Source: Candidatus Krumholzibacteriia bacterium (lineage in GTDB: Bacteria > Krumholzibacteriota > Krumholzibacteriia > LZORAL124-64-63). From it: a stretch of 34,151 nucleotides of DNA. Positions 3,904 through 30,144 of this stretch are shown piece by piece. The DNA lies in NCBI GenBank assembly GCA_046484865.1, contig JAWOID010000113.1, positions 1-34,151 on the forward strand, read 5' to 3'. Both the position numbers and the translations under genes were made by a program. The notes beneath the pieces are model-generated. The model did not search any database and had not been told where the DNA came from. It saw nothing but the letters and a program-made list of their open reading frames with translations. The stretch's first letter is position 1; each line of letters begins with the position of its first letter.

Positions 3904-3940
3904 GGCATGCCTCCATTGACTCGGGTCTGGCTGAATGCAG

Positions 3941-3958: not shown

Positions 3959-4097
3959 ACAACCTGACCAACTGGCAGCTGTCCACCATCAGGAGGACCC
4001 CGATGTCTTCAGTCGGGGAGAAATCGTGTCTGCGGGTCGACCAGGCCGGGGAGCACGGCTAACCGGCGATTCTGACCGCCTGCCCGGTATCCGGCCG

Positions 4098-4910: not shown

Positions 4911-5236
4911 CGGTCATCCTCCAGCGATGATCGGCTGATGCAGGGCGCAGCCTGCGGTCGAGAGCGGGTCATCCGGCACGGTGGGGTCGATCGGCGCCGG
5001 CCGCAAGTCCGTTCTGCCGCCCCCGGGACGCGGGGCCGGGCGGCCGCGCACCATCGCCCGCGCCGCGGTGGGACCTGCTGCCCGATGCGCTGCACCTCGC
5101 ACACCGCTCGGGCCGCGCGCGCCGCTCCGGGACTTGCTTGGCGCGATCGGCTCGACGATCATCCTTCCGGCGCATCCCGGGCCCGAGCCGCCAGCTGATT
5201 CGAAGGCGACCTGAGCCGCCGCCGTGAGGAGTCCGC

Positions 5237-6244: not shown

Positions 6245-6398
6245 GGGATGGCCACGGCGGTCGTGCGGAGGTTCCTGCGGCAGCCGCGCGGACGCACCCT
6301 GCCGGCCTCGAGCGCGTAATTCGGATGAATCAACATGTGAATCGAGTGGGGATCGCCACCATAGTCCGTTCTTTTTTGCCCCCGGCCCGAAAACCGCG

Positions 6399-6426
6399 TT
6401 GACATCCAACCGCGATCTCGTACTTT
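6399..6426 (+). promoter_or_regulatory. Sigma70-like promoter (TTGACA-N16-TACTTT) upstream of kamA operon
   Basis: TTGACA at 6399-6404, then a 16-bp spacer and TACTTT(AT) at 6421-6426. It sits in a locally AT-richer stretch, about 150 nt upstream of the GTG start at 6579. Confidence 0.4.
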
Positions 6427-6578
6427 ATCGCGCCACTACCGGGTGTGACCGGTCGGGAGGCCGGCCCCCGTGTCGTACCGACGGACCGTCCGGGCGCCGC
6501 CCCTGCGCGGCATCAGAATCCGGACGACCAGACCGCCGGCGAGGTTTGTGTGGTTGCCAGCCTTCGAGGAGGCGAACC

Positions 6579-8953: not shown

Positions 8954-9902
8954 CGAGGCGGACGTCCTCGCTCAGGTGGAGGCGGTCGCCGCCGCGCTGA
9001 AAGGACTGGGGCACGAGACCGCGGCGTTCGGCTGCAGCCTCGACCTGCAGGCCGTCGCCGGCGCCCTGGCCGAGTGGCGCCCCGGCGCTGTCTTCAACCT
9101 GGTCGAGAGCCTGGCCGGCCACGGACGTCTGATCCACCTGGCACCGGCCGTCGTGGAGGCGTCCGGCGTCCCGCTGGCGGGCTGCCCGACCGAGGCCATC
9201 TTCCTGACCTCGCACAAGCTCGTGGCGAAGGAATGCCTCCAGCGTGCGGGGCTGCCCACGCCCGCCTGGCTCGGCCCGGACGGCTCGCCCGGCGGGCGGC
9301 CTCCGGCGAACGAACCGCGGCAGTGGATCGTCAAGTCCGTGTGGGAGGACGCATCGCTGGGCATGGACGACGGTTCGGTGATCACCGGTACGGCCGCCGC
9401 CCGCGATCTCCTGCGGCAGCGGTGCGGCACGGCCGGCGCCCCCTGGTTCGCGGAGGCGTTCGTGGAGGGCCGCGAGTTCAACATCGCGCTGCTCGACGGG
9501 ACCGACGGCCCCCGGGTGCTGCCCCCGGCGGAGATGCTATTCGCGGACTACCCGGACGGCAAGCCGCGCATCGTGGGCTACGCCGCCAAGTGGCACGCCG
9601 ATTCCTTCGAGTACGGCCATACCGTGCGCACCTTCGACTTCCCGTCGGAGGACCGGTCGTTGCTGGACGAGCTGACCGATCTCTGCCACGCCTGCTGGCG
9701 GTCGTTCGGGCTGCGCGGCTGGGCACGGGTCGATTTCCGGGTGGACGCCGACGGGCGACCATGGATCCTCGAGGTGAACGCCAACCCCTGCCTGGCTCCG
9801 GACGCCGGCTACGTCGCCGCCGTCGAGCGGGCCGGTTCGACCTTCCCGCGGGCCGTGGCGCAGATCCTCGCCACGGCGGCCGCCGACGGCCGCCGGCCCT
9901 GA
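8904..9902 (+). CDS. ATP-grasp ligase, D-alanine--D-alanine ligase-like (paralog 2)
   Basis: ATG 8904 overlaps the 3' end of paralog 1 by about 50 nt. Motifs include …QWIVKSVWEDASLG…, …FAEAFVEGREFNIALL… and …GWARVDFRVDADGRPWILEVNANPCLAPDAG… (Ddl-type Mg/ATP site region). Confidence 0.8.
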   Translation: MRVLLLHNAVSPHAAPDEADVLAQVEAVAAALKGLGHETAAFGCSLDLQAVAGALAEWRPGAVFNLVESLAGHGRLIHLAPAVVEASGVPLAGCPTEAIFLTSHKLVAKECLQRAGLPTPAWLGPDGSPGGRPPANEPRQWIVKSVWEDASLGMDDGSVITGTAAARDLLRQRCGTAGAPWFAEAFVEGREFNIALLDGTDGPRVLPPAEMLFADYPDGKPRIVGYAAKWHADSFEYGHTVRTFDFPSEDRSLLDELTDLCHACWRSFGLRGWARVDFRVDADGRPWILEVNANPCLAPDAGYVAAVERAGSTFPRAVAQILATAAADGRRP

Positions 9903-9919
9903 CGGGAGGAAGTCGCCGC

Positions 9920-11656
9920 ATGTTCCGCATCCGACGCATCCATGACGACGCCCTGCCGGTGAACCTGGCCGCCCTCGAGCAGGTGCAGGCCATCCTGCGC
10001 GACCGCTTCCCGGACGCGCCCGACAAGGACGCCGACGAACTGCCGTCCCGCCTGCGCGACCCGTACCTGCACCGGTTCCACGGCGTGCTCTACGTGGCGG
10101 AGAAGCAGAGCGGGGGCGGGGTGCAGGGGTTCGCCCTGGTGCTGCACGATGCGCAGCTGCGGATGCTCTATCTCGACTACATCGCCGCCCAGGCGCGGCT
10201 CACGAGCCGCGGCATCGGCGGCGCCCTCTACCAGCGGGTCCGCGACGAGGGCAAGGCGCTGAACGCCCGCGGCGTCTTCTTCGAGTCGCTCCCGGACGAC
10301 CCGGCCGACTGCGGCGACCGGGCGCTGCTCGTCGCGAACAAGGCGCGGCTGCGCTTCTACGAGACCTTCGGCGCCCGGCCGCTGGTGAACAACGATTACA
10401 CCAGACCGGTGCGCCCCGACGACACCTGCATGCCGTATCTGGTCTACGATCCCCTGGACGGCAAGGCGCCGGGCCGCCGCTTCGTCCGCGAGGCGGTCCG
10501 CGCCATCCTGGAGCGCAAGTACGCCCACCTGTGCCCGCCCGAGTACGTGGAGGCGGTGGTCCGCTCCTTCAAGGACGACCCGGTGCAGATGCGCGCTCCG
10601 CGCTACCGCAAGGAACCGCGGCCGGTGGCACCCGCGGTGGTGGGCCAGGAGCGGATCGCGCTCATCGTCAACCAGAAGCACGACATCCACCACGTTCACG
10701 ACCGGGGCTACGTGGAGGCGCCGGTGCGCGTATCCCGCATCCTGGCCGAGCTGGACCGGACCGAGGCCTTCGAGCGCCTGGAGGCGCGGGAACGCGGCGT
10801 CGAGCACATCAAGCAGGTGCACGACCGCGGCTACGTGGAGTACCTGCGACGGGTCTGCGCGGGGCTCGACGCGAAGCAATCGGTCTACCCGTACGTCTTC
10901 CCCGTCCGCAACGCCAGCCGGCCGCCGCAGGATCTGGCCGTGCGCGCCGGCTACTACTGCATCGACACCTTCACTCCGCTCAACCAGAACGCCTACAAGG
11001 CGGCGCGGGGGGCGGTGAACTGCGTCCTGGCCGGTGTGGAGGAGATCAGACGCGGCCGGCGGCTGGCCTATGCCCTGGTGCGGCCGCCCGGCCACCACGC
11101 GGAGCGGAGGTCGTTTGGCGGCTTCTGCTACTTCTGCAACGGCGGGATCGCGGCCAGCGAGCTGGCGCGCCTGGGCAAGGTGGCTCTGCTGGACATCGAC
11201 TACCACCACGGCAATGGCCAGCAGGACATTTTCTATGCCCGCGACGACGTGCTGACGGTCTCGATCCACGGCCATCCGCGGTTCTCGTACCCCTACTTCT
11301 CGGGCTTCGCCGAGGAAGAGGGCGAGGGCGCCGGCCGCGGCTTCAATCTCAACCTGCCGCTGCCGGAGACCATCGATGCGATCCGCTACCGCGAAGCGCT
11401 GGAGCAGGCGCTGCGCCGGGTGCGTTCGTTCAAGCCGGCGGTACTGGTGGTGTCGCTGGGGCTGGACACCGCCAAGGGTGACCCGACCGGCACCTGGTTC
11501 CTGGCGGCCGACGACTTCTTCGAGAACGGGCGCCGCATCGGCGCCATGGGCCTGCCGACCCTGGTGGTGCAGGAGGGCGGCTACCGCACCCGCACCCTGG
11601 GTCGCAACGCGCGCGCCTTCTTCGAGGGGCTGCGCAAGGGAGAGCGCGAATCGTGA
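9920..11656 (+). CDS. Bifunctional fusion: N-terminal GNAT acetyltransferase domain + C-terminal histone-deacetylase/acetylpolyamine-amidohydrolase (HDAC/AcuC/APAH) family domain
   Basis: GGAGG RBS before ATG 9920 (MFRIRRIHDD…). N-terminal ~180 aa carry GNAT motif A (…SRGIGGALYQRV…). C-terminal ~390 aa carry the HDAC signatures RPPGHHA, DIDYHHGNG, SLGLDTAKGDP and QEGGY. The upstream part of track ORF 9074..11656 is rejected. Confidence 0.8.
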   Translation: MFRIRRIHDDALPVNLAALEQVQAILRDRFPDAPDKDADELPSRLRDPYLHRFHGVLYVAEKQSGGGVQGFALVLHDAQLRMLYLDYIAAQARLTSRGIGGALYQRVRDEGKALNARGVFFESLPDDPADCGDRALLVANKARLRFYETFGARPLVNNDYTRPVRPDDTCMPYLVYDPLDGKAPGRRFVREAVRAILERKYAHLCPPEYVEAVVRSFKDDPVQMRAPRYRKEPRPVAPAVVGQERIALIVNQKHDIHHVHDRGYVEAPVRVSRILAELDRTEAFERLEARERGVEHIKQVHDRGYVEYLRRVCAGLDAKQSVYPYVFPVRNASRPPQDLAVRAGYYCIDTFTPLNQNAYKAARGAVNCVLAGVEEIRRGRRLAYALVRPPGHHAERRSFGGFCYFCNGGIAASELARLGKVALLDIDYHHGNGQQDIFYARDDVLTVSIHGHPRFSYPYFSGFAEEEGEGAGRGFNLNLPLPETIDAIRYREALEQALRRVRSFKPAVLVVSLGLDTAKGDPTGTWFLAADDFFENGRRIGAMGLPTLVVQEGGYRTRTLGRNARAFFEGLRKGERES

Positions 11657-12192
11657 GCCGAACCGAGCGCAAGCAGGCAGCCGGGACGCCCGGCCGGGGT
11701 GGCGCGGCCGCCGGTGCAGCGGTCCTGCGGGACGACGTACGACCTTCGGACGTGGCCGCCGTCCGCGACCTCGTGGCCGCCACCGGCTTCTTCAGTGCCG
11801 AGGAGGTGGGAATCGCCGCCGAGCTGGTGCAGGAGCACCTCGAGAAGGGAGCGGCCAGCGGCTACGAGTTCCTCTTCGCCGAGGTGGACGGGCGCGTGGT
11901 GGGCTACACCTGCTACGGCTTGATCCCGTGCAGCACCGTCAGCTGGGACGTCTACTGGATTGCGGTCGACCCGGACCAGCAGGGGAGCGGGCTGGGGCGG
12001 CGGCTCATGGCAAAGACCGAAGACCGGGCGCGCGCACGCGGCGGTGTGACGGTCTTCGCCGAGACCAGCGGTCGCGCCCAGTACGAGCCCACGCGCGGCT
12101 TCTATCACCGCTGCGGTTACCACGAGGCCGCGCTGCTCGAAGATTTCTATGCGGTCGGCGACGCCAAGGTGATTTTCGCGCGCCGCCTGTGA
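11653..12192 (+). CDS. GNAT family N-acetyltransferase
   Basis: GTG start overlaps the stop of the preceding gene (GTGA). GNAT core (…VGYTCYGL…WIAVDPDQQGSGLGRRLM…). Confidence 0.8.
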   Translation: MSRTERKQAAGTPGRGGAAAGAAVLRDDVRPSDVAAVRDLVAATGFFSAEEVGIAAELVQEHLEKGAASGYEFLFAEVDGRVVGYTCYGLIPCSTVSWDVYWIAVDPDQQGSGLGRRLMAKTEDRARARGGVTVFAETSGRAQYEPTRGFYHRCGYHEAALLEDFYAVGDAKVIFARRL

Positions 12193-15223: not shown

Positions 15224-15955
15224 TCAGTGCCTGGCGCTGTCGCTCTCTTGCGCGGTCGGTCCGGAGCGCAGGCGCGGGAACAGGACATTGTTCTCCTTGT
15301 GGATGTGGCGGTGCGTGTCGCGCTCCAGCTCGGCGATGGCCCGGACGAGCGCGCGCCAGCTCTCGCAGGCGTCGTCCGGCGTGGCGTGGTCGCCGGTCAG
15401 TCGCCGCATCGTCGCCAGGAGCTCGCCCGCCTGCTCGTGTTCGGTCTCCATCACCCGGAGCGGACCCTCCAGGTGGTGCGCTCGTCCGGAGGCGCCGTCG
15501 TCCTCGCTGGCGCGGGCGAAGGCGCGGACGGCAGGGAAAAGGATCTGCTCCTCCTTCGCCAGGTGGCTCTCGATCTCGGCCCGGAAGCCGCCGATGACCC
15601 GTTCCAGCTCGACCAGCTCCGGGTGCCGGTCGCCATGGGCGTCGCGCACGCGGGCGGCGAGTTCGGTCAGGCGCGGCAGCTCCGACTTGAGATAGGCGTG
15701 GTGGAGGCCCTCGATATGATCGACCAGTTCCTGGAGGTCCATGCCCGCGACGTCCGACTCGTCGTCGCTCGCCGCGGCCGCGGGCATGCTTTCGAGCATG
15801 AGCGCGACGGTGTCGGCATCGAGCCCGCGCTCGGCGCAGGCGTCGGCCAGGGACCGCTGGCCGCCGCAGCAGTAGTCGAGCTGCAGACGGTCGAAGACCC
15901 CCGCCAGATGAGGTCGGGCGCGCACCAGCTCGCCGAGGGTGGTCCGGGTGTTCAT
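15224..15955 (-). CDS. ytfE: Iron-sulfur cluster repair di-iron protein (YtfE/ScdA/RIC)
   Basis: N-terminal ScdA_N motif (GELVRARPHLAGVFDRLQLDYCCGG). Hemerythrin-like C-terminal domain with His/Glu ligand spacing (…HHAYLKSE…, …HIHKENNVLFP…). Confidence 0.85.
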   Translation of the reverse strand: MNTRTTLGELVRARPHLAGVFDRLQLDYCCGGQRSLADACAERGLDADTVALMLESMPAAAASDDESDVAGMDLQELVDHIEGLHHAYLKSELPRLTELAARVRDAHGDRHPELVELERVIGGFRAEIESHLAKEEQILFPAVRAFARASEDDGASGRAHHLEGPLRVMETEHEQAGELLATMRRLTGDHATPDDACESWRALVRAIAELERDTHRHIHKENNVLFPRLRSGPTAQESDSARH

Positions 15956-16149
15956 GTCGGCAACCTCCTGATCGCAAGGAATCGAGGACGACGCGGTCCT
16001 GATGAGGCCAACGTAAGCGCACCGGCCCCTGAGTCAAGACTAATTTCGTCGTGTTTCCGTCCGGCGCCGGTGCGATTAGGTTGGGCAGCGGCAGCCGTAT
16101 GCCGGACGGCGTGTGACGGCGCCCGGCCGACCCGATCGAGGAGGGGTCC

Positions 16150-16527
16150 ATGACCGACTACCACGAGCCGTGGGACGCGCAGTCCGAGGAGGACCGGAAC
16201 ATCCACCGGGCTCTGATGAGCCTCAAGGAGGAGATCGAGGCGGCGGACTGGTATCACGAGCGCGCCGCCGCCACGCGCGACGAGTCCCTGCGCAAGATCC
16301 TCGTCCACAACCGCGACGAGGAGATCGAGCACTCCTGCATGCTGCTGGAGTGGCTGCGCCGCAGGATGCCGGCCTTCCAGGAGCAGCTCTCGCTCTACCT
16401 CTTCAAGGAAGAGGACATCACCGAGATCGAGGAGATGGCGGAAAGCGGCGACGAGGACGGGCAGGAAGTCGAGGCCGCCCCCGGATCGACCGGGCTCGGC
16501 ATCGGCAAGCCGAAGGGGGATGAATGA
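16150..16527 (+). CDS. Encapsulated ferritin-like cargo protein (EncFtn/Flp-type) with C-terminal encapsulin targeting peptide
   Basis: 125 aa. Di-iron E-x-x-H-type motifs (EEIEAADWYHERAA, EEIEHSCMLLEWL). C-terminal tail …GSTGLGIGKPKGDE resembles the G-x-L-G-I-G-x-L-K encapsulin cargo-loading peptide. Stop overlaps the start of the shell gene (ATGA). Confidence 0.7.
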   Translation: MTDYHEPWDAQSEEDRNIHRALMSLKEEIEAADWYHERAAATRDESLRKILVHNRDEEIEHSCMLLEWLRRRMPAFQEQLSLYLFKEEDITEIEEMAESGDEDGQEVEAAPGSTGLGIGKPKGDE

Positions 16528-17351
16528 TGGATTTCCTGCGCAGAGGGCTGGCGCCGGTGGCGTCCGGAGCCTGGGGTGAGATCGACGAGACCGTCGCACG
16601 CGTGCTGCGCGCGCAGCTCCGCGGCCGGTCGGTGGTCGACGTGGAGGGTCCGTTCGGGCTGGACCGGGCCGCCGTGGGCCTGGGCCGCCTGAATTCGGTC
16701 AGCAACCCCGAGAAGGGTGAGGTTGGTTTCGGCGTGCACCGCGTCCAGCCGCTGGTGGAGACACGCGTGTCGTTCGACCTGGACGTCTGGGAGCTGGACA
16801 ACCACGCCCGCGGCGCGGTGGACCTGAAGCTCGACGCGGCCGAGGAGGCCGCGCGCGCCATCGCCCGCTTCGAGGACGAAGCGGTCTTCAACGGTTTCGA
16901 CGACGGCTCGATCGTCGGTCTGACCGAACTCCGGGAACACGACCCGGTGGCCATCGCCGCCGAGCCCGGATCGTTCCTCGACGGAGTGGCGCGGGCGCTG
17001 CTCACGCTCCGGGACGCCGGCGTGGAAGGGCCGTACGCCCTGGTCCTCGGCCCCGACCTCTACCGGCTGTACGCCACCCATGCCGCAGGCTATCCGCTGA
17101 AGAAGCAGGTCCAGAATCTCGTGGAAGGCGACGTGGTGTACGCGCGCAGTCTCGAAGGGGCCCTGCTGCTGAGCCAGCGCGGCGGCGACTTCGTGCTGAC
17201 GCTGGGCCAGGACCTGGCGGTGGGCTACGAGGGCCATACCAACCGAACGGCCACCCTCTTCATCACGGAGTCGTTCACCTTCCGCGTGGTCGACCCGAAC
17301 GCCGGGGTCGTGCTCCCGGTGAAGAGCAGCCAGGACGCTGTGCCCGGGTAA
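16524..17351 (+). CDS. Family-1 encapsulin nanocompartment shell protein (HK97-fold, linocin M18-like)
   Basis: 275 aa, typical family-1 length. Sequence recognised as encapsulin shell (…VETRVSFDLDVWELDN…, …GPYALVLGPDLYRLY…, …FVLTLGQDLAVGYEGH…). Immediately downstream of the cargo gene, with start/stop overlap. Confidence 0.8.
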   Translation: MMDFLRRGLAPVASGAWGEIDETVARVLRAQLRGRSVVDVEGPFGLDRAAVGLGRLNSVSNPEKGEVGFGVHRVQPLVETRVSFDLDVWELDNHARGAVDLKLDAAEEAARAIARFEDEAVFNGFDDGSIVGLTELREHDPVAIAAEPGSFLDGVARALLTLRDAGVEGPYALVLGPDLYRLYATHAAGYPLKKQVQNLVEGDVVYARSLEGALLLSQRGGDFVLTLGQDLAVGYEGHTNRTATLFITESFTFRVVDPNAGVVLPVKSSQDAVPG

Positions 17352-17491: not shown

Positions 17492-18388
17492 CTAGACAGC
17501 GTCCAGGTACTCCGCGACCGCGACGCGAGCGAACTCCGGCAGCGCGAAGGCCGCCCGGTGGATGTCGAGGTTGTAGTAGCGCCCCGGCAGCCCGGCGGCC
17601 ACCGCGCGTTCGGGCTTCAGGTCGCCGACCGGGCGCAGCCCCAGCGACGCGAAGCTGAACGACCAGAGACCACCCGGATAGGTGAGGTTGGAGTAGTCGT
17701 AGAGGTTGAGCTGCGGGAACACATCCCGCAGCGTTCCCATCAGGCTGCGCTGGGCTGCGCCCTCGTACCACGGGTTCTCACCCTGGGAGACGACGATCCC
17801 CTGCCGGGTGAGCACCCGCTTCACGTCGCCGTAGAATTCGCGGCCGAAGAGCGGCTGGGCCGGTCCGATCGGGTCGGTGGAATCGACCAGCACCACGTCG
17901 TAACGATCGGCGGTGTCGCGGACGAAGGCCACGCCGTCGCCGATGGTCACCTGGACGCGAGGATCGTCGAGGGCGGCCGACGTCAGGCGCAGGTGCTCCC
18001 GGCAGGCGTCTACCACCATCGCGTCGATCTCGACCAGTCGCACGTGCTCCACCGACGGATGGCGGAGAACTTCGCGCACGGTGCCGCCGTCACCGCCGCC
18101 GATGACCAGGACGCGGCGCGGATCCGGGTGCACGCAGAGCGGCACGTGCGCGATCATCTCGTGATACGCGAACTCGTCGCGCTCGGTGACCATCACCAGG
18201 CCGTCGTTGAGCAGCATGCGACCGTGGCCGGCCGTCTCCACCACGTCGACGCGCTGGAACTCGCTGCGGCCGGAGAAGAGCACGCGGGTGACCCGGAAGC
18301 GGCTGGCGTAGATGTCGCGGAAGCGCTCCTCGATCCAGAGGTCGAGCGGCGCGCCCTCGCCGGCGCCGGCGGGCTGGGTCTCGTTCAT
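17492..18388 (-). CDS. speE: Spermidine synthase (aminopropyltransferase)
   Basis: 298 aa. Motifs VLVIGGGDGGTVREV (AdoMet-derivative binding) and VVLVDSTDPIGPA. The start ATG overlaps the stop of the upstream gene (ATGA). Track ORF 17492..19390 is trimmed to this start. Confidence 0.9.
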   Translation of the reverse strand: MNETQPAGAGEGAPLDLWIEERFRDIYASRFRVTRVLFSGRSEFQRVDVVETAGHGRMLLNDGLVMVTERDEFAYHEMIAHVPLCVHPDPRRVLVIGGGDGGTVREVLRHPSVEHVRLVEIDAMVVDACREHLRLTSAALDDPRVQVTIGDGVAFVRDTADRYDVVLVDSTDPIGPAQPLFGREFYGDVKRVLTRQGIVVSQGENPWYEGAAQRSLMGTLRDVFPQLNLYDYSNLTYPGGLWSFSFASLGLRPVGDLKPERAVAAGLPGRYYNLDIHRAAFALPEFARVAVAEYLDAV

Positions 18389-19362
18389 GACGTGCTCCTC
18401 TCGACCCGCGGCTCGCGCTGCAGGTGGGCGTATTCCACGGCATAGCCGCAGCTCAGGACCCGCCCCGTCCGGTGGGTGACGGTCAGGCCTCCGGTCACGG
18501 CGCCGGCCTCGTCCGGGTCCAGCGCGAGACTCCTCTGGAAGATGAGCAGCTCCGCCCTGGCCGGGCGGAACGCTTCCAGCAGGCGGGCGACGACGGCCCG
18601 CTGGCCGGCCGCGTCCAGCTGCCGGTTGGTCTCGAAGCTCACGTACGATCCGATGCGCTGCGGGGTCACGTGCAGGGTGGCGTAGGTGGAGCCGCCGAGG
18701 GCGTTGTAGGAGTAGCCCTGCGGCGCGAAGATGTGGTCGTCCACCGCCAGGTCGCCGAAGAGGTCGGCCAGGCCCGACCGGCGCCGCAGCTCGGGAGCGT
18801 CGTTGCGGCCCGGGACGAACAGCCCGCCCACATCGTCGGGGATGCCGTGCATGAGCAGCTCCAGCGTCGTGTCGTCGGCGTCCGGTTGCCAGGCCCGGTC
18901 CAGATGGAACAGCGCGATGTGATCCCCGTCCGCATCGCCGAACACCTCGGTGGCGCCCGCGACCAGCGCCCGCAGCCGCACCACGTCGTCGTCGAACGAC
19001 GACCGCTGCAGGTGGGGGAAGTTCTCGTTCTTGCGCTCGTAGATCACCGATGCCAGCGCGGCGCCGGTGCCCACCTGCCGCAGGATGCGCTCGGCCGCCA
19101 CCGCCAGCGTGGTCCGGCCGCAGGTGATCATCAGCAGGCGGTCGTCCCAGACGAAGAGGCTCGACTCCGAGAGCAGGTAGGCGTCGCATTCCGGGCTCGA
19201 GAGCTGCGAGAGGATCTCGGCCTCCGCCGCGGCCACGACGCCCTCCCAGAAGGTCGGTCCCAGCCCGCGCAGAGGCGGCGCCGCGGGGGCGAGCAGCACC
19301 TCCAGCTTCTTCTCCGGACCCTCGAACAGCATCTCCACCTCCTCCGTCGTCGCGGCGGCCAA
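18385..19362 (-). CDS. S-adenosylmethionine decarboxylase proenzyme, class II (eukaryotic-type)
   Basis: 325 aa. N-terminal FEGPEKKLEV… matches the eukaryotic-type AdoMetDC signature. LLSESSLFV contains the Glu-Ser autoprocessing site that generates the pyruvoyl cofactor. Upstream of and overlapping speE. Confidence 0.85.
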   Translation of the reverse strand: MAAATTEEVEMLFEGPEKKLEVLLAPAAPPLRGLGPTFWEGVVAAAEAEILSQLSSPECDAYLLSESSLFVWDDRLLMITCGRTTLAVAAERILRQVGTGAALASVIYERKNENFPHLQRSSFDDDVVRLRALVAGATEVFGDADGDHIALFHLDRAWQPDADDTTLELLMHGIPDDVGGLFVPGRNDAPELRRRSGLADLFGDLAVDDHIFAPQGYSYNALGGSTYATLHVTPQRIGSYVSFETNRQLDAAGQRAVVARLLEAFRPARAELLIFQRSLALDPDEAGAVTGGLTVTHRTGRVLSCGYAVEYAHLQREPRVERSTS

Positions 19363-19512
19363 TGTTAACGCCGGCGGGCGTCCCGGTCAAAAACCCCCCG
19401 GTTGCCGGTCGATGGGGGTATGCCTAGGTTCGGGAGGGAAAGAGCCACGGAAACGGGCGGGAGCGCGGGCGGACGGGGGGCGCTCGTTCGCCCAGGACAG
19501 GAAGGACGAGTC

Positions 19513-19944
19513 ATGGCGAACGCCAAGCAGGGAGACCGGGTCAAGATCCACTACACGGGCCGCCTCAAGGACGGCACGGTCTTCGATACCAGCGAGGGAC
19601 GCGAACCTCTGGAATTCACGGCCGGCAGCGAGGAACTGATCACCGGCGTGAGCCACGCGGTCATCGGCATGGAGGAAGGTCAGGAGCGGACGATCACGGT
19701 GCCCCCGGAAGAGGGGTTCGGAGAGCGGCGCGAGGACCTGGCCCAGGAGGTCCCCCGCGATGCCTTGCCGCAGGACGTGAAGGTCGGCGAGCCGCTGACG
19801 GCGCGCTCCGGCGAGCAGGAGGTCCGCGTCTGGGTCCGGGAGCTCTCGGACGACAGCGCGGTGGTGGATGCGAACCATCCGCTGGCGGGACATACCCTGG
19901 AGTTCGACGTCAAGGTGGTGGGCGTCGAGGAACCCGCCGATTAG
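19513..19944 (+). CDS. FKBP-type peptidyl-prolyl cis-trans isomerase (SlyD-like, cytoplasmic)
   Basis: Start MANAKQGDRVKIHYTGRLKDGTVFDTS… is the canonical FKBP N-terminus. It lies within track ORF 19402..19944. There is no signal peptide. An inserted-flap-like region is followed by …LAGHTLEFDVKVVGV…. Confidence 0.8.
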   Translation: MANAKQGDRVKIHYTGRLKDGTVFDTSEGREPLEFTAGSEELITGVSHAVIGMEEGQERTITVPPEEGFGERREDLAQEVPRDALPQDVKVGEPLTARSGEQEVRVWVRELSDDSAVVDANHPLAGHTLEFDVKVVGVEEPAD

Positions 19945-20127
19945 TTCCGCCGACGATCTCGGTCCCGTCGTCGCCGCGCCGCGTCGCCGCCTCGCCGCTG
20001 CGTCGCTTCGCCGCTTGACCGTCCGCCGCCTCGCCGCCTCGCTGCCCTCGCCGCGTGGCGGAGACGCGACTACCGTTTCTGCGGGTGTCGATCGTCGCGA
20101 TTTCCGACCGGCCGAAAGGAGACCAAG

Positions 20128-22452
20128 GTGCCGGACGAGATACGGATCAAGGTGGCGGAGTCCCGTCAGCCGGATGTCGGCAAGGGCCTCGTCAGGCTGT
20201 CGGTGGACGCCATGGCCACGCTCGGTCTCCAGGACGGCGGACTGGTGGAGCTCGAAGGCAAGCGGCGCACGGCGGCCGTCGTGCTCTCGGGCTTTCCGGA
20301 GGACGAGGGGCTCGACATCGTCCGCATGGACGGCCTGCTGCGCGGCAACGCGGGCATCGGTATCGGTGAGCAGGTGCTGGTGCGCCGGGCCGACGCCAAG
20401 GAGGCGCGCTCGGTCACGCTCTCGCCCGCCAAGCCGGGTGTGCGCCTGGGCGGATCGGGCGACGGTCTGAAGCCGACGCTGCTGCACCGGCCGCTGGTCA
20501 CGGGCGACCTCATCTCCACCAGCGTGTTCAAGCGCATGCCCGACCAGATGCCGCCGGGCGCCACGCCGAACGAATTCCTGCGCGGCATGCTGCAGTCGCG
20601 CGCCTTCGGCCTGATGGAGATCCGGCTGGTCGTGATGAAGACGCAGCCCACGGGTGTGGTGCGGGTGACCGAGAACACCCAGATCGAGCTGCTGCCCGAA
20701 TACGAGGGCGATCCCGAGCATGCGATCCGCGAGGTCACCTACGATGACATCGGCGGCATCCGCCCGGTCATCCAGAAGCTGCAGGAGATGGTGGAACTGC
20801 CGCTGAAGCATCCCGAGCTCTTCGCCAGGCTGGGCATCGATCCACCCAACGGCGTGCTGCTGCACGGCCCCCCGGGCACCGGCAAGACCCTGCTGGCGAA
20901 GGCGGTGGCGCAGGAATCGGATGCGGCCTTCTTCGTCATCAACGGCCCGGAGATCATGGGGAAGCACTACGGCGAGTCCGAGGAACGCCTGCGCGCGGTG
21001 TTCGAGGAGGCGGCTCAGAACGCTCCGGCCATCGTCTTCATCGACGAGCTCGACTCGATCGCGCCCAAGCGGGCGGAGGTCACCGGCGAGGCGGAGCGGC
21101 GCATCGTGGCGCAGCTCCTGACGCTCATGGACGGCATGCGCGACCGGCGCAAGCTGATGGTGATCGGCGCCACGAACCGGGTGGACGCCATCGACCAGGC
21201 GCTGCGTCGCCCCGGTCGGTTCGACCGCGAGATCGAGGTGCGCATCCCGGACCGGGTGGGTCGTCTGGAGATCCTGCAGATCCACACGCGCGGCATGCCG
21301 CTGGAGAAGGATGTCGACATCGCCGACCTGGCGGAGCACACCCACGGGTTCACGGGTTCGGACATCGCCGCACTGGTCAAGGAAGCGGCTCTCGCCACCC
21401 TGCGGCGGCTCATGCCCACGATGAACCTCGAGGAGGAGACCATCCCGCCCGAGGTCCTGGAGCGGCTGATCGTGCAACGGCAGGACTTCGATCAGGCCCG
21501 CAAGGAAGTGCAGCCGTCCGCCCTGCGCGAGGTCATCGTGGAGGTGCCGGCGGTGCGCTGGGACGACGTGGGCGGCCTGCAGGACGTCAAGCGCCTGCTG
21601 CACGAGATGGTGGAGTTGCCGCTGCAGAGCCCGGAGGCCTTCGAACGCCTCGGCATCAGGCCGGCGAAGGGGCTGCTGCTCTACGGGCCGCCCGGAACCG
21701 GCAAGACCCTCATCGCGAAGGCGGTGGCCACCGAGGCGGGAGCGAACTTCCTGTCGGCCAAGGGCAGTTCGCTGCTCTCCAAGTGGTACGGGGAGTCCGA
21801 GAAGCGGGTGGCGGAGTACTTCGCCCGCGCCCGACAGGTGACGCCGGCCATCCTCTTCTTCGACGAACTCGACGCCCTCGCGCCGGCGCGCGGCGGCTCC
21901 CTCGGCGAGCCGCACGCCACCGAGCGGGTCGTGAACCAGCTGCTCGCCGAGATGGACGGCATGGAGGAGTTGCGCGGCGTCGTGGTGCTGGGCGCCACCA
22001 ACCGTCCCGACCGCATCGATCCGGCGCTGCTGCGCCCCGGGCGTTTCGACGAGATGGTCTACGTGTCCATTCCCGACCTCGAAGCTCGCCGGTCCATCCT
22101 GGCGGCCCACACGCGCGAGATGGCGCTCGACGAGGATGTCGATCTGGAGAAGCTCGCCCAGATCACCGACAGGTTCACCGGCGCGGACATCGCCGGCGTC
22201 TGCGCGCGGGCCGGGATCTTCGCCCTGCGCGAGAACGTGGAAGCCGAGGCGGTGACGATGGACCACTTCCAGCGCGCGGTGAAGGAGACCATCCCGTCGG
22301 TCACCCCCGAGATGGAGCGGCAGTACCAGAAGGTGGCGCGGCAGGTGAAGCAGCAGGCCTCGCGGATCGGCTTCCTCACCGAGGAGGAGACCGCCGCCGC
22401 AAAGGCCGCCTCGGCCGCCGCCTCCGCTTCTGCGCAGCGCCCGGAAGAATAG
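20128..22452 (+). CDS. Cdc48/p97/VCP-like AAA+ ATPase (N-terminal double-psi-barrel domain + two AAA domains)
   Basis: 774 aa. AAGGAGA RBS before GTG. Cdc48-type N-domain (…[23 protein letters not shown]…). Two Walker A (GPPGTGKT x2) and two Walker B ([16 protein letters not shown]) motifs. Second-region-of-homology arginines are present. Confidence 0.9.
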
Positions 22453-22455
22453 GCG

Positions 22456-23700
22456 GTGGAGGCACGGGAGCCTGCGCACCGCGACGAGCCGCCTGCCGGA
22501 CTCGCCGCGGGAGGGGTGCTGCGCGATCGCAACCTGCACCTCGTGTTCGCGGTGACGCTGATGGCGGTGCTCGGCGTCTCGAGCATCGCCCCGGCCCTGC
22601 CGAAGGTCGGTCGCGTCCTCGACCTCACCCCGCAGGAGACCGGCTGGCTGGTCACCATCTTCACCTTGCCGGGGGTGGCGCTGACTCCGGTCGCCGGCGT
22701 GCTGGCCGACCGGTTCGGCCGCCGGCGCATCCTCGTGCCGGCGCTCTGGGTGTTCGCACTGGCGGGCGCCGCCTGCGCGCTGGCCGGCAGCGTGCGCATG
22801 CTGCTCATCCTGCGGCTGATCCAGGGCATGGGAGCGGCGTCGCTGGGATCGCTGAACGTCACGGTCCTCGGCGATCTCTACCAGGGCCGCCGGCGAGCGG
22901 CCGCCATGGGCTACAACGCCGCCGTCCTCAGCGTGGGCACCGCGGCCTACCCGGCGCTCGGCGGGCTGCTGGCGCAGTTGCACTGGCGCCTGCCGTTCGC
23001 GCTGCCGCTGCTGGCCATCCCCGTGGCGCTGGCTGTACAGAGGCTGCTCCGCAACCCCGAGCCCGACGGAGGCGGTTCGCTGCGCGAGTACTTCGGCGCG
23101 GTGGGACGCGGGCTGCGTCACCGCGCCATCCTCGGCATCTTCACGGTGAGCGTCGTCACCTTCGTGCTGCTCTACAGCGCCATGATCATCTATCTCCCGC
23201 AACTCCTGGACCGTCGCTACCACCTCGCTCCCGCGATCATCGGGATCTTCCTGACCGGCTCGTCCGCGGTCACGGGCCTCGTCTCGTGGCACCTGGGCAA
23301 GCTCTCGCGCCGCCACGGCGAGGGGCGTCTGATCCGGCTCGGCTTCCTGCTCTTCGCGCTGGCGCTGGTGCTGGTGCCGGTGCTGCCCGGGCCGTGGGCC
23401 CTGGCTCTGCCCGCGGCGCTCTTCGGGGCGGGCATGGGTCTGACCATGCCCAGCCTGATGACCATGCTGGCGAGCCTTGCGCCGCAGGCGCACCGGGGCG
23501 CGTTCATGTCGCTCAACGGCATGGTCCTGCGGTTGGGACAGACCCTGGGCCCGCTGGTCGGCGGGCTGGCCTACGGTCTGGGCGGCCTCGATGCGCCCTT
23601 CCTGGCGGGCGCGGTCCTGGCGGTGATCACGTTCCTGCTGATCCTCGCGACGTTGCCCCGGCGGGCGGCGGCAGACGGGCCGGCGCAGGAGTCGGCCTGA
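22456..23700 (+). CDS. MFS transporter
   Basis: Starts 3 nt after the Cdc48-like stop. 12-TM pattern. MFS loop motif between TM2 and TM3 (GVLADRFGRRRIL). Confidence 0.8.
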   Translation: MEAREPAHRDEPPAGLAAGGVLRDRNLHLVFAVTLMAVLGVSSIAPALPKVGRVLDLTPQETGWLVTIFTLPGVALTPVAGVLADRFGRRRILVPALWVFALAGAACALAGSVRMLLILRLIQGMGAASLGSLNVTVLGDLYQGRRRAAAMGYNAAVLSVGTAAYPALGGLLAQLHWRLPFALPLLAIPVALAVQRLLRNPEPDGGGSLREYFGAVGRGLRHRAILGIFTVSVVTFVLLYSAMIIYLPQLLDRRYHLAPAIIGIFLTGSSAVTGLVSWHLGKLSRRHGEGRLIRLGFLLFALALVLVPVLPGPWALALPAALFGAGMGLTMPSLMTMLASLAPQAHRGAFMSLNGMVLRLGQTLGPLVGGLAYGLGGLDAPFLAGAVLAVITFLLILATLPRRAAADGPAQESA

Positions 23701-24630: not shown

Positions 24631-24858
24631 CTAGCGGCCGCTGAACGGGGCGGCGTCGTGCCGGGCCAGGATCTCCCGCCACTCCGCTTCCGGCAACACC
24701 TCGGATTCGTCCACGAGCATGATCGGGATGTCGTCCTCGATGCGATAGCGGCGGCGCGTGGCCGGATCGGTGGACACCAGCGTGTCGCCGTCCAGCACCA
24801 GGGGCGCCTTGCTCTCGGGGCAGACCAGGATGTCCAGCAGGTCCTTGTCGATGGCCAT
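24631..24858 (-). CDS. Trm112 family protein (UPF0434/YcaR-like small zinc-ribbon-like protein)
   Basis: 75 aa. N-terminal LLDILVCPESKAPL and the …EDDIPIMLVDE… arrangement are typical of the Trm112 family. Confidence 0.8.
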   Translation of the reverse strand: MAIDKDLLDILVCPESKAPLVLDGDTLVSTDPATRRRYRIEDDIPIMLVDESEVLPEAEWREILARHDAAPFSGR

Positions 24859-25104
24859 GGGCGGCCGTCCTCCGCGTTTGGGGGGTGATCCCGGCGTCCG
24901 GGCACTACGATAGCACCGCGACGGTCCGAGCGACAGGTCTCCGCGCCGGGCGACCCGTCGCGCAGCAGGCGCCTTGCATAATGTCGCGGGATGCTCTATC
25001 TTTCCCCGTCCGCACGCGCCGGAATCACGGTGCGGTGCCGTCGTTTGCGCCGCGCGACGAGAGCGCCCTGGCGCGCATCAGCGAGTTGTGGAGGAGAGCC
25101 GGCC

Positions 25105-25272
25105 ATGGCCAAGAAGGGTCCGCGGAAGATCGTGATCCTGGAGTGTACCGAGGCGCCGGGGACGTCGGTCTACACGACCTACAAGAACCCGCGCAACGAC
25201 CCGGACCGTCTCCAGCTCAAGAAGTACAACGCGGTGCTGCGCAAGCACACGATGCATCGCGAGAAGAAGTAG
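25105..25272 (+). CDS. rpmG: 50S ribosomal protein L33
   Basis: 55 aa; [55 protein letters not shown] matches the L33 family. No CxxC pairs, so a zinc-independent form. Lies within track ORF 24991..25272. Confidence 0.9.
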
Positions 25273-25642: not shown

Positions 25643-25877
25643 GAATCGGCGGGTCCGCGCTCGAACCGCCGTCCGACCCGGGAAGCCCGGGGCCGGGCGC
25701 GTGGTCGGCGCCAGCATCTCGGCCGTCCGGCCTTCGCCCGGACGGCCTCTTCGTGCCCGGTTCGCGCCGCCGGACCGGCGCTCCGGCGACCTGCCGATTC
25801 TCGCTGGCGCGCTTAACGTGCCCTCCGGAGCCTGGACCCGGGAGGACGGGGCGCGAATCCCAACCGAAGGAGTGATC

Positions 25878-26588
25878 ATGCGATTCTTGACAATGGGCGG
25901 AATCGTGCTGCTGGCCCTGAACCTGGCGGCCTGCGGCAACGACGCTGAGCGAACCGAGGTCACCAGCCTCGACACCGATGCGGCACGCCGTTCCTATGCC
26001 GTGGGAATGGACGTGGGCGGTTCGCTGCAGCGGACCGGGGTCGAGATCGACATGGCCGCTTTCGAGCAGGGCCTGCGAGACGGTTTCGCCGGCCGTGATT
26101 CGCTGCTCACTCGTCAGGAGATCCAGCAGACGCTGCAGGCGTTCCAGACCGAAGCGCGCGACGCCATGACTGCGCGGCAGCAGGAGCAGGCCGGCGCGGC
26201 GGAGGAGGAGGGTCGCGCGTTCCTGGACCAGAACCGCCAGCGCGAGAACGTGCAGGAGACCGAGAGCGGGCTGCAGTACGAGGTCATCGAGGAGGGCGAG
26301 GGTCCGCAGCCGGAACCCACCGACGTGGTCCGCGTGCACTACGAAGGCCGGCTCGTCAGCGGCAAGGTCTTCGACAGCTCCCGCGAGCGTGGCGAGCCCG
26401 CGGAGTTCCAGCTCAACCGGGTGATCCCGGGCTGGACCGAGGGGTTGCAACTCATGCACGTGGGCGGCAGCTACCGCTTCTTCATCCCATCCGAACTCGC
26501 CTACGGCGAGCGCGGGGCCGGGCCCGACATCCCGCCCAACGCCACGCTGATCTTCGACGTGGAACTGCTCGACATCATCGAGCAGTAG
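25878..26588 (+). CDS. FkpA-like FKBP-type peptidyl-prolyl isomerase, periplasmic lipoprotein
   Basis: ATG 25878 (MRFLTMGG…) within track ORF 25701..26588. Signal plus lipobox (LNLAACG). N-terminal helical dimerisation-like region. C-terminal FKBP domain (…[19 protein letters not shown]…[31 protein letters not shown]…). Confidence 0.85.
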
Positions 26589-27744: not shown

Positions 27745-29811
27745 TCAGGCCGGCGCAGCCCCCGGCGCTGCCTCCGGCGCTGCCTCCGGCGCAGCCGTCG
27801 GTCCAGCCGCGGCGCCGGCACGGATCTGCTCCAGGTTCCAGAGCGCGTCGGCCGCAGCCGGCTCGCGGGCGAGCACCGACAGCAGCAGTTCCTCGGCGCT
27901 GGCCGCGTCGCCGGACCGCCAGCGGCAGACCGCCAGATTGCTGGCCGCCCGGCTCCAGCGCGGCCGATGGCGCAAAACGGCGGTGAACAGGCGTTCCGCG
28001 GTGCGCAGGCGCCCGGAAGCGAACAGGGTCTCGCCGGTGTCCAGCCAGTCGTGCAACTCGCCGTCGGCGGCCGGCACCGGCTCCCAGGCGGCCGCATCCA
28101 GGACGGGGACGAAATGCAGCGCCGGGTGGTAGCCGCCGGCAAGGACCGGCGAGTGCGCCATCGCTCCGGGTCCCCGAGCACCGGGCGGCAGTTCCCACAG
28201 GTCGCAGAGTTGACGCCACGCAGCAGCCGTGGCCACGTCCGCTCCCGGCACGGGCGTCGTCGCGGCGGCGGGGGTGGTGACCACTCCCAGGCCGGCCACC
28301 GTCGCGCGCAGGCAGAGGTCGGCCACACCCGCTGCGGCGTCGTCCAGGCCCGGTTGCCACCCGCCGGCGCGGGCCAGGGCGCGGGCGGTCACCAGCAGCA
28401 GGACGGGCGGCAGGATGAGCGCCCGTCCCGGGCCGCCGCCGTTGCTACCGTGGCCCACGATGCCGGTGCTCGGATCGGCCGTCGCCGCCAGCATCGCCGC
28501 GAGCCAGCCGGGCTGCGGACATGTCCGTGCGTCGAGCAGCGCGACGTGCCGGCCGTGCGATCTCGCCAGCGCGGCGTTCACCGCGGCGGCGAGGCCGGTC
28601 GCCGGCGGCGTCGGCGCGACGGCCACCGTTCCGGATCCTGCTCGGGCCAGCCGGGCGCAGTCCTCGCGAGCGGCTGCCGTGTCGTCGCGGGGCACCACCA
28701 GCCACTGCGCCGCGGCACCGGCCGCGCGCGGATCCGGGAGCGAGACCTGTGCGCCGGGCGACCCCGCCAGCACGATCACCGTGGCGGCCGGTCCGGCCAC
28801 CGCGTCCACCGCTGCCGGTGCCGCCGCTGCCGTCGCCGTTGCCGTCGCAGCTGCCGGTGCCGCCGCAGCTGCCGGTGCCGTCGCAGCTGCCGTCGCCGCT
28901 GCCATCGCCGTTGCCGCCGCGGTCGATCCCGCCGCCGCCGGCGGCTGCTCGCGCCGGCGCCAGCGGGGCGGGACGTAGGGCGCGGGAGTGCTTGCGTCCG
29001 GGTGCGATTCGGCCACCTGCTCCGGCGTCTCGACGAAGTCCGGCACGACCCGGCCGCGCCAGCGCCGGTCGAGCAGCGCCATGTTCTCGCGCACCCGCGA
29101 CCAGCGCTGGGTCCCGCTCTGCGACTCGTAGTGGATCACCACGCTCTCGGGCCGGTAGACGGTGCCGTATCCGGCCGCGGCGATCCTGAAGCAGAGATCC
29201 ACGTCCTCGTTGCCGTTCCAGAAGCTCTCGTCGAAGCCGTCGAGCCGCCGGAAGAGCTCCGCCCGCACCAGCAGGCACGCACCGGTCACCGCCTGCAACC
29301 GCAGCGGCCGGCTGGCGCCGGGGAAGTCGGCCGGTTTGCGGTAGCTCAGATGGCGCCCGCCGAGGAGGTGGCCGGCACCCGTCCACTGGTCGATGACGGC
29401 GACTCCGGCGTGCTGGATGGTGCCGTCGGGAAACAGCAGCCGTGCTCCGACTGCCCCGATCTCGGGATCGTCGTCCAGGGTGACGATCAGCGGGGTCAGC
29501 CAGCCGGGCGTCACCTCCATGTCGTTGTTCAGGAACAGGAGGTGGCGGCCGCGACCGGCGGCGGCGCCCTGGTTGCATCCCCGGGCGAAGCCGCCGTTGG
29601 CGGGATTGCTCACGACACGCAGACGACCGCGGGCGGTCTCCTCCCTCAGGTACTCGGCGGTTCCGTCGCTCGAGCCGTTGTCCACCACGACGATCTCGAA
29701 ACGGCCCGGTGGCGTGTGCCGGTGGATCGATGCCACGCAGGCCCGCGTCAGTTCGAGCCGGTCGAACACGGGGATCACGATGGAGACGTCGAGATGCGGA
29801 TCGGTGGACAT
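27745..29811 (-). CDS. Multidomain family-2 glycosyltransferase (GT2 domain + Ala/Thr-rich linker + second GT-like domain + C-terminal TPR-like region)
   Basis: ATG at 29811 (MSTDPHLDVSIVIPVFDRLELT…). GT-A motifs VVVDNGSSDGT, NNDMEV and the DxD-like FDES. Low-complexity AAATAMAAATAAATAPAAAAAPAAATATATAAAAPAA segment. A second region, HVALLDARTCPQPGWL…, follows. The C-terminus ends with APEAAPEAAPGAAPA. The 5' part of track ORF 27745..31764 beyond 29811 is rejected. Confidence 0.75.
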   Translation of the reverse strand: MSTDPHLDVSIVIPVFDRLELTRACVASIHRHTPPGRFEIVVVDNGSSDGTAEYLREETARGRLRVVSNPANGGFARGCNQGAAAGRGRHLLFLNNDMEVTPGWLTPLIVTLDDDPEIGAVGARLLFPDGTIQHAGVAVIDQWTGAGHLLGGRHLSYRKPADFPGASRPLRLQAVTGACLLVRAELFRRLDGFDESFWNGNEDVDLCFRIAAAGYGTVYRPESVVIHYESQSGTQRWSRVRENMALLDRRWRGRVVPDFVETPEQVAESHPDASTPAPYVPPRWRRREQPPAAAGSTAAATAMAAATAAATAPAAAAAPAAATATATAAAAPAAVDAVAGPAATVIVLAGSPGAQVSLPDPRAAGAAAQWLVVPRDDTAAAREDCARLARAGSGTVAVAPTPPATGLAAAVNAALARSHGRHVALLDARTCPQPGWLAAMLAATADPSTGIVGHGSNGGGPGRALILPPVLLLVTARALARAGGWQPGLDDAAAGVADLCLRATVAGLGVVTTPAAATTPVPGADVATAAAWRQLCDLWELPPGARGPGAMAHSPVLAGGYHPALHFVPVLDAAAWEPVPAADGELHDWLDTGETLFASGRLRTAERLFTAVLRHRPRWSRAASNLAVCRWRSGDAASAEELLLSVLAREPAAADALWNLEQIRAGAAAGPTAAPEAAPEAAPGAAPA
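28808..28925. repeat. Imperfect tandem GC-rich repeats (GCYGCYGCCGTCGCC-like) encoding the Ala/Thr-rich linker of the GT2 protein
   Basis: Reiterated GCCG(C/T)(C/T)GCCGTCGC and GCAGCTGCCGGTGCC units seen directly in the sequence. Lies inside CDS 27745..29811. Confidence 0.6.
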
Positions 29812-30144
29812 ACGCGTGACCTCGGGTCGGGGGATGGGCGATGCCGACCATCCGCTTGCAAGCCGCCGACCAGCCGCGGACCTCCGGACGAGCGAACGTG
29901 AAGGCCGTAACCGAATGCCAGGATAGGGATTCCGGAGCTCGATGACCCCAGACGGCCGTGACGACCACCGGCGGGCGCCGGCGCCGGCGGATTCAAATCG
30001 GCCGCCGCCGGACGGGGCTCGACCAGCCCTTCCCGGGCGTCGCCCGCGGTCCTGACCGATCGTGATTACCTTCCCAGGTGCGGGTCGTACCGGCGGCGAG
30101 AGGCCGCGTCCGGCAAACGTTTCGACGGGATCGGAGGGTCCGCG

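Follow-up and report, generated by a model that had tools for sequence, protein, structure and literature searches.

The 34,151-nt contig JAWOID010000113.1 belongs to a metagenome-assembled genome (MAG) of Candidatus Krumholzibacteriia (GCA_046484865.1) and is here called the window; all window-wide statements refer to these 34 kb. It encodes a Cdc48/VAT-family AAA+ ATPase of 774 amino acids (20128 to 22452 on the + strand, including the stop codon). Taken as a whole, the observations are probably best explained if this protein is a VAT-like threading unfoldase that would not dock on the 20S proteasome in the canonical way, that carries a p97-like C-terminal tail, and whose neighbouring genes do not form a conserved module. 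A conserved hydrophobic-Gly-Phe motif that marks this tail is newly noticed here and had been missed in an earlier reading of the same DNA (the original prediction). The exact protein already bears the NCBI name "CDC48 family AAA ATPase" on this contig (P0001; PGAP name via TIGR01243). The locus is a further member of a known, functionally uncharacterised clade and, already annotated, adds little by itself.

Family assignment and domain architecture

The NCBIfam profile TIGR01243 matches residues 5-742 of the protein over model positions 2-731 of 733, with 973.8 bits against a cutoff of 802.65. Pfam resolves a CDC48_N domain (PF02359, residues 7-89, 87.5 bits), a CDC48_2 domain (PF02933, residues 114-191, 40.1 bits), and two each of the AAA and AAA_lid_3 domains. 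Among relatives of solved structure, Thermoplasma VAT (5g4f) ranks first, with 766 bits and, over 710 aligned columns (residues 5-736), 53.7% identity; human p97 comes next at about 670 bits. An AF2 monomer model built on 43 homologues (alignment A1) has a mean pLDDT of 81, with the N-domain folded at pLDDT 83-93 except for an insertion at residues 134-159. Foldseek matches this model best to p97 and plant CDC48A (TM-scores 0.75-0.82, 44-46% identity).

Other AAA identities were rejected. The FtsH model TIGR01241 reaches 510.6 bits against a cutoff of 600; its match is limited to the AAA core, and the protein has two AAA modules and no peptidase M41 domain. For the anti-phage ATPase IteA, the model NF042959 gives 230.5 bits where 510 are required, and PAN, CdvC and EccA all remain under their NCBIfam cutoffs. 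The window protein is thus a Cdc48/VAT/p97-subfamily ATPase and is not FtsH-like or CbbX-like. The original prediction had described it as a Cdc48/p97-like double-ring AAA+ protein with an N-domain, D1, D2 and two intact Walker A/B sets, and had proposed a profile search for other AAA families, such as FtsH-like proteins or CbbX, as the check. With that search run, the description is upheld by the TIGR01243 score, by VAT as best solved relative, and by the Pfam domains and the motifs read out in both modules.

The N-domain (20146-20700, + strand, as are all parts of the gene) consists of a double-psi barrel (residues 7-89) and a beta-clam (residues 114-191). Compared with VAT, the beta-clam contains an insertion of about 25 residues, visible as a gap in the phmmer alignment at approximately residues 134-159 (20527-20604) and modelled at pLDDT <50. 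Homologues hold an aromatic-rich counterpart with the consensus FFRxFFESPAFG, and the insertion could be a clade-specific binding site for substrates or adaptors.

The D1 module (20854-21432) contains Walker A (GPPGTGKT, residues 247-254), the pore-1 loop (KHYG, 279-282), Walker B (IVFIDELD, 302-309), sensor-1 (GATNR, 347-351, with N350), the Arg-finger motif (ALRRPGRFD, 358-366) and a lid (395-435). In the D2 module (21673-22356) the same order is found, with an identical Walker A at 520-527, the pore-1 loop KWYG at 552-555, Walker B ILFFDELD at 575-582, sensor-1 GATNR at 622-626 (N625), the Arg-finger motif at 633-641 and a last helix spanning 727-743. The Walker, sensor-1, Arg-finger and pore-loop positions are invariant or nearly so among the 43 homologues, Tyr281 of the D1 pore loop being at least 90% conserved. 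Judged from these motifs, both AAA modules are catalytically complete. The presence of an aromatic residue in each pore loop is the VAT-like layout that would be expected of a processive threading unfoldase.

The C-terminal tail

Just past the last D2 helix, the tail of the window protein reads ...VKQQAS-R746-I747-G748-F749. The motif R746-F749 (22363-22374) lies in a segment modelled at pLDDT <50 and is followed by a lineage-specific, Ala-rich extension of 25 residues (22375-22449). In alignment A1, I747, G748 and F749 are at least 90% conserved and the flanks are variable. A second alignment (A3), of 24 tail sequences spanning 36-71% identity, leaves the Gly and Phe of the motif as the sole invariant residues of the tail and Tyr733, which is invariant in A1 also, as the sole invariant residue of the last helix. 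Unique bacterial tails show the pattern [ILVMF]-Gly-[FL] in 250 of 258 cases, compared with 6% of shuffled tails, mostly as IGF (234 tails) and otherwise as VGF (7), LGF (4), FGF (3) or MGF (2). The residue ahead of it is Arg in 110 of these tails and Pro in 105. Between the helix and the motif the homologues have a linker of 5-11 residues, and 0-40 unconserved residues trail the motif. A short-query search of the PDB with the tail peptide returned coiled-coil noise only.

A positional counterpart of this motif is found in p97. phmmer pairs the window tail with p97 ...RKYEMFAQTLQQS-R, setting R746/F749 within 1-2 residues of p97 R766/F768, and Tyr733 corresponds to p97 Y755. In p97 bound to ATPgammaS, Phe768 occupies an allosteric pocket on the adjacent D2 subunit and Arg766 touches the gamma-phosphate; the F768A substitution raises kcat about 2.1-fold (PMC11181084). 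The pocket comprises the R625/D627 loop and the C-terminal helix with K754/Y755, and R626, D628 and Y733, their counterparts in the window protein, are conserved. Since p97 has an Arg-Gly-Phe at the same place, the parsimonious reading, and the most likely one, is that the RIGF motif is a p97-like inter-subunit regulatory tail that would tune ATPase turnover. Docking on ClpP was rejected as the leading account of the tail in view of the correspondence with p97 R766/F768.

By homology with VAT and p97, six subunits would stack with the D1 ring on the D2 ring, and substrates or adaptors would be captured by the N-domains. Both rings would hydrolyse ATP to draw the polypeptide, hand over hand, along the central pore in the direction from D1 to D2, unfolding the substrate or extracting it from a complex or aggregate. 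The RIGF tail would reach the neighbouring D2 subunit and tune ATPase turnover there, as proposed from p97 R766/F768. The genomic context suggests a role in cytoplasmic quality control or as a segregase, in which the protein would act without a protease or with a partner whose gene lies elsewhere.

Several points weigh against this account. The tail motif appears to correspond to p97 R766/F768 by position only, and the register may be off by 1-2 residues. In about 40% of tails, those of Sphingomonadales among them, Pro takes the place of the Arg ahead of the motif, and thus the Arg that contacts the gamma-phosphate is not universal. The motif is missing from more distant, presumed-archaeal representatives of 50%-identity clusters, which have Tyr-containing termini (...YVG, ...YFG, ...AYR); this would not obviously be predicted for an ancient intrinsic regulatory element, the label "archaeal" being taken here from the literature and not from confirmed taxonomy. 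Hexamer formation, unfolding activity and substrates are all presumed from homology. Finally, the pairing of the gene with an upstream FKBP prolyl isomerase gene persists in two Krumholzibacteria lineages in which all other flanking genes differ, and there may be a lineage-specific functional coupling of FKBP and Cdc48 within Krumholzibacteria.

Two further observations concern tails of this type. In Sphingomonadales the tail is lengthened to a conserved PIGFIxEGMVESTRxxKH, which suggests that the functional tail is longer there. The same ...RRIGFER-type tail is found in a distinct family of double-AAA proteins, about 700 amino acids long and without the Cdc48 N-domain (P0363 at 3115-5220 of locus L176; also P0339, P0351 and P0376). 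At L176 and L177 a gene of this family lies between integrase and Hsp70-like genes, in what resembles a mobile or defence island.

Possible coupling to proteases

Archaeal Cdc48 requires a C-terminal hydrophobic-Tyr-X (HbYX) motif to activate the 20S proteasome (PMC3493965). The window protein ends ...SAQRPEE and has no Tyr or Phe in the penultimate position, which is where the HbYX criterion for archaeal Cdc48-20S ATPases places it. Even in a relaxed form, [LVIMGAPFYW][FY]x at the extreme C-terminus (after Forouzan et al., PMC3493965), the pattern fits only 9 of 144 unique homologue tails. No proteasome, ClpP, Pup or ubiquitin-like family was found by Pfam among approximately 38 open reading frames (ORFs) that span almost all of the window, in a scan that did not systematically cover ORFs below about 90 amino acids, the size of Pup. 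The original prediction had made the same two statements, that there is no hydrophobic-Tyr-X docking tail and that 20S, Pup and ubiquitin-like genes are missing from the window, and both stand, the second within the limit just given.

Linkage to genes elsewhere was analysed in a set of 170 Cdc48 loci with flanks of 6-10 kb, of which 90 came from genomes and look-ups of exact proteins and 80 from metagenomes. A tblastn search with an E. coli ClpP query gave no convincing clpP match in the flanks of any of these loci, nor in the window. Canonical docking on a 20S proteasome is, most likely, not to be expected of this tail. With no HbYX motif and no linked proteasome or ClpP gene, the protein would most likely be a stand-alone unfoldase or segregase, or would pass its substrates on to a partner whose gene is not close by.

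An unlikely alternative, though the one that survives best, is that the [ILVM]-Gly-Phe tail is a ClpP-docking motif like the IGF, IGL and LGF loops of ClpX, ClpA and ClpC. Bacteria with an archaeal-type Cdc48 would then have exchanged the HbYX tail for an "IGF" tail, giving a Cdc48-ClpP protease in more than 10 phyla, including the Sphingomonadales. The consensus for docking on ClpP, established in the ClpX and ClpA literature, is [LIV]-G-[FL]. It is matched exactly by residues 747-749 (IGF), and one 50%-identity cluster representative (P0242) has IGL, as in ClpA. As in ClpX, ClpA and ClpC, the tripeptide would sit on a flexible part of the exit side of the ring: the tail would leave the exit face of D2, where archaeal Cdc48 tails dock on the 20S, and its variable linker, variable trailing length and low pLDDT resemble the behaviour of a short linear docking motif. 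Moreover, the motif tracks the domain of life that has ClpP, given that the presumed-archaeal representatives, of unconfirmed taxonomy, end in a terminal Tyr motif. A literature search found no paper on the idea of Cdc48 docking on ClpP. However, the Arg-Gly-Phe of p97 at the same position has a demonstrated intramolecular role, which explains the conservation without a new partner. The tail has a rather short linker with which to reach the ClpP pockets, and no convincing clpP match lies in the 6-10 kb flanks of cdc48 at any of the 170 loci. ClpX, ClpA and ClpC belong to another AAA+ clade and carry their motif in an internal loop, and no known ClpP partner docks by a C-terminal tail instead of a loop. 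The p97-like regulatory tail is therefore the reading retained here.

Gene neighbourhood

The gene directly upstream (19510-19944, + strand) encodes a prolyl isomerase of 144 amino acids with an FKBP domain (PF00254, E=1.6e-23; NCBI name peptidylprolyl isomerase). It is of a common cytoplasmic, SlyD/SlpA-like type of about 142 amino acids, with sub-threshold full-length matches to the SlyD (PRK10737) and FkpB (PRK15095) models. The spacer between the two genes (19945-20127) is 183 nt long and includes an AAGGAG Shine-Dalgarno sequence at 20116-20121, 6 nt before the GTG start of the Cdc48 ORF. Downstream, an MFS transporter of 414 amino acids (22456-23700, + strand; PF07690, E=2.8e-59) begins with a GTG at 22456, 3 nt after the Cdc48 stop codon that ends at 22452. 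Both distances agree with the original prediction, which had placed the FKBP gene 180 bp upstream and the MFS gene 3 nt after the stop. Its further claim of a conserved adjacency with a folding catalyst did not survive comparison with other loci, and the MFS adjacency did not recur there either.

In this comparison the window FKBP, MFS, pirin, S-adenosylmethionine decarboxylase (AdoMetDC), SpeE, encapsulin and FkpA proteins were used as tblastn queries against the 170 loci. An FKBP gene lies upstream of Cdc48 in only one other lineage, represented by a Krumholzibacteria MAG and matching metagenome contigs (L001-L005 and L141). In this lineage, identity is 64% for Cdc48 and 49% for the FKBP, with a spacer of 142 nt. 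At roughly 165 other Cdc48 loci no FKBP was found within 6-10 kb. For P0002, the Cdc48 homologue of highest identity (75%), the gene upstream encodes a zinc alcohol dehydrogenase and there is no FKBP, and the Cdc48 neighbours in Binatia, Desulfobacterota and Acidobacteriota are unrelated to those in the window. Conversely, the four closest FKBP orthologues examined (73, 69, 62 and 55% identity) adjoin FGE-sulfatase, acetyltransferase or PMT-like genes and not Cdc48.

At L171, home of the closest FKBP orthologue, the gene order is FKBP, FGE-sulfatase, Trm112p (- strand), DksA/TraR, L33 and L28, and in the window it is FKBP, Cdc48, MFS, pirin, Trm112p-like (- strand) and L33. Cdc48, MFS and pirin thus occupy the slot of the FGE-sulfatase in an FKBP...L33 backbone. 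This suggests that they were inserted into an older backbone next to a housekeeping FKBP gene, and that FKBP and Cdc48 are not an inherited two-gene module. In the spacer, a scan detected no terminator-like site and no promoter-like site on the + strand, and comparison with the L001 equivalent gave no conserved element, only GC-rich noise. A shared regulatory element was rejected on these grounds.

It is accordingly unlikely, and slightly more so than docking on ClpP, that FKBP and Cdc48 constitute a functional unit for protein remodelling with the SlyD-like FKBP as adaptor or refolding partner. The second Krumholzibacteria lineage does preserve gene order, orientation and a similarly short spacer amid otherwise different flanks, and SlyD-type FKBPs, to whose model the window FKBP gives a sub-threshold full-length match, carry a chaperone (IF) insert. 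But the pairing is confined to two lineages of one class and is absent from about 165 other loci in more than 10 phyla and from that of P0002. The orthologous FKBPs have other neighbours, the backbone shared with L171 suggests an insertion, and the spacer sequence is not conserved. A functional link of the FKBP to the unfoldase is weakly supported.

For the MFS gene, tblastn found the window-type transporter next to Cdc48 at 0 of about 170 other loci. Other, unrelated MFS genes lie directly downstream of Cdc48 at two loci only (L012 and L014), and were treated as chance occurrences, MFS genes being common. In this genome the transporter is probably co-transcribed with the unfoldase. FKBP and MFS are accordingly regarded as lineage neighbours and not as parts of a conserved module, and the idea of such a module is not worth following beyond Krumholzibacteria.

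Clustering of the neighbouring ORFs over the Cdc48 loci recovered only vertical synteny in Sphingomonadales (polA, CoA-transferase, Usp-like and HAD genes) and no partner gene of Cdc48 across phyla. Several neighbours in the window have a stress-related flavour (EncFtn-encapsulin, RIC/ScdA, polyamine synthesis, pirin and the FKBPs). None of them is conserved next to Cdc48, and no inference is therefore drawn from them.

The Trm112p-like (- strand) and L33 (+ strand) genes are found downstream of the FKBP gene at 24631-25272 in the window and at 5588-6851 in L171. A second FKBP gene in the window (25701-26588, + strand) encodes a periplasmic protein of the FkpA type (FKBP_N and FKBP_C), in keeping with a diderm host; apart from the common catalytic domain it bears no relation to the FKBP beside Cdc48.

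Distribution of the bacterial clade

More than 8000 proteins match the window protein at E<1e-50. In the top 120, the matches that bear a name are 61-75% identical along their full length and belong to Binatia, Deltaproteobacteria, Tectomicrobia, Planctomycetes, Acidobacteriota, Nitrospirae, Bipolaricaulia and Krumholzibacteria. When one genome was scanned for each species, 393 relatives were obtained. The best 80 of the 393, which are those described here, add Gemmatimonadota, Spirochaetota, Verrucomicrobiota (Udaeobacter) and many cultured Alphaproteobacteria, with homologues in Novosphingobium, Erythrobacter, Altererythrobacter, Croceibacterium, Microvirga and Salinarimonas. More than 10 bacterial phyla have homologues that are 55-75% identical over the full length, including those of Desulfobacterota and many cultured Sphingomonadales. 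The original prediction had considered bacterial Cdc48 proteins to be uncommon outside Actinobacteria, a view that these numbers contradict.

Ziemski et al. (2018) found that bacterial Cdc48s outside Actinobacteria cluster with archaeal ones, and read them as horizontal acquisitions (PMC6017811). The window gene falls in a large bacterial clade, related to archaeal Cdc48 and for the most part vertically stable. In a literature search we found no paper characterising any member of this clade, and the only one found to mention it takes its members to be sporadic acquisitions from archaea. The gene has a GC content of 69-70% and a third-position GC content (GC3) of 0.91, and its flanking genes are alike in both; recent horizontal transfer into the contig was rejected for this reason. 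At the Sphingomonadales loci (L029-L090) the cdc48 neighbourhood is stable, with genes for CoA-transferase subunits upstream and polA downstream, which points to long vertical inheritance.

Comparison with known systems

The window protein shares the N-D1-D2 architecture and two complete ATPase sites with VAT and archaeal Cdc48 (5g4f, 5vc7), and also an aromatic D1 pore loop, which is KYYG in VAT and KHYG here. It differs from them in the missing C-terminal HbYX, in the beta-clam insertion of about 25 residues compared with VAT, and in its bacterial host. The hydrophobic-Gly-Phe tail is a further difference from archaeal Cdc48, as far as the presumed-archaeal relatives without it, whose taxonomy is unconfirmed, are representative.

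With p97/VCP it has in common the fold, an Arg...Gly-Phe a few residues past the last D2 helix (R766/F768 in p97) and Tyr733 in the place of Y755. p97 lacks the aromatic residue of the D1 pore loop that is present in the window protein. The published comparison is consistent with this (PMC6017811). Furthermore, p97 works with ubiquitin adaptors and has a long acidic tail that ends LYG and recruits PUB/PUL cofactors, whereas no ubiquitin-like system is evident by Pfam among the approximately 38 ORFs of the window.

Within the bacterial "CDC48 family AAA ATPase" clade, full-length identities of 55-75%, the N-domain insertion and the ...KQxxxR/P-IGF tail are common property. The window protein is set apart only by its Ala-rich extension of 25 residues, by a His in the pore loop of D1 (KHYG) and by having FKBP and MFS genes as neighbours.

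Cpa, the actinobacterial protein, is likewise a bacterial Cdc48-like double-ring ATPase without a classical HbYX motif, and binds the 20S proteasome nonetheless (PMC6017811). It forms a separate cluster, its D1 is degenerate and lacks the sensor Asn and the Arg finger, and its gene is part of a psd-pssA-cpa operon near proteasome genes (PMC6017811). The window protein probably belongs instead to the archaeal-like Cdc48 group, given that the published tree places the non-actinobacterial bacterial homologues with archaeal Cdc48s (PMC6017811). In contrast to Cpa, its D1 is canonical (GATNR at 347-351, ALRRPGRFD at 358-366), its neighbours are FKBP, MFS, pirin and polyamine-synthesis genes with no psd or pssA, and its host is a member of the Krumholzibacteriia and not an actinobacterium. 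That it should nevertheless act, like Cpa, as a non-canonical activator docking on a 20S, Anbu, BPH or HslV encoded elsewhere is highly improbable: a few homologues end exactly ...IGFR or ...IGFK and thereby fit the relaxed HbYX pattern, but these are among the 9 tails mentioned above, 25 residues trail the motif in the window protein, the Pfam scan of the 34-kb window found no proteasome-family gene, and the Alphaproteobacteria of the clade, such as Sphingomonadales, are not known to have 20S proteasomes.

Other genes in the window

Divergent from the FKBP gene is a polyamine pair on the - strand (17492-19362), in which the gene for a eukaryotic-type AdoMetDC (PF01536, 192 bits, 18385-19362) and the end of that for a spermidine synthase (PF01564, 17492-18400) overlap. 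PF01536 is known mainly from eukaryotes, and a bacterial copy in a polyamine operon may deserve attention. At 16117-17351 (+ strand), an EncFtn-like cargo gene (PF22277) is followed by an overlapping gene for an encapsulin shell (PF04454, 284 bits), the classic operon of an iron-storage nanocompartment. A gene for a RIC/ScdA di-iron repair protein lies just upstream of it (15224-15955, - strand).

A run of genes at 6138-12192 (+ strand) encodes a radical-SAM protein resembling lysine-2,3-aminomutase, two ATP-grasp proteins of the D-Ala-D-Ala-ligase type, a long ORF with a C-terminal histone-deacetylase domain, and a GNAT acetyltransferase. The long ORF is listed with 860 amino acids from a GTG at 9074 and overlaps the preceding ATP-grasp gene, its true start being probably later. 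The run may represent a pathway to a beta-lysine-derived metabolite or osmolyte. Finally, the - strand gene at 27745-29949 encodes a family-2 glycosyltransferase with a C-terminal TPR region and an Ala-rich linker. The linker is encoded by an imperfect tandem repeat of 12/18/36 nt at 28811-28920, which accounts for the 78% GC peak at 28-29 kb.

Implications

The clade of Cdc48/VAT-type unfoldases to which the window protein belongs is spread over diderm bacteria, hosts that are not known to have proteasomes or ubiquitin-like tagging. The conserved tail motif offers a concrete and cheap experimental handle on the function of bacterial Cdc48 proteins, usable in homologues from cultivable hosts such as Novosphingobium or Erythrobacter. 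Learning which substrates the clade acts on, and which protease it feeds, if any, would fill a gap in bacterial proteostasis, and the clade would inform how AAA unfoldases switch partners in the course of evolution.

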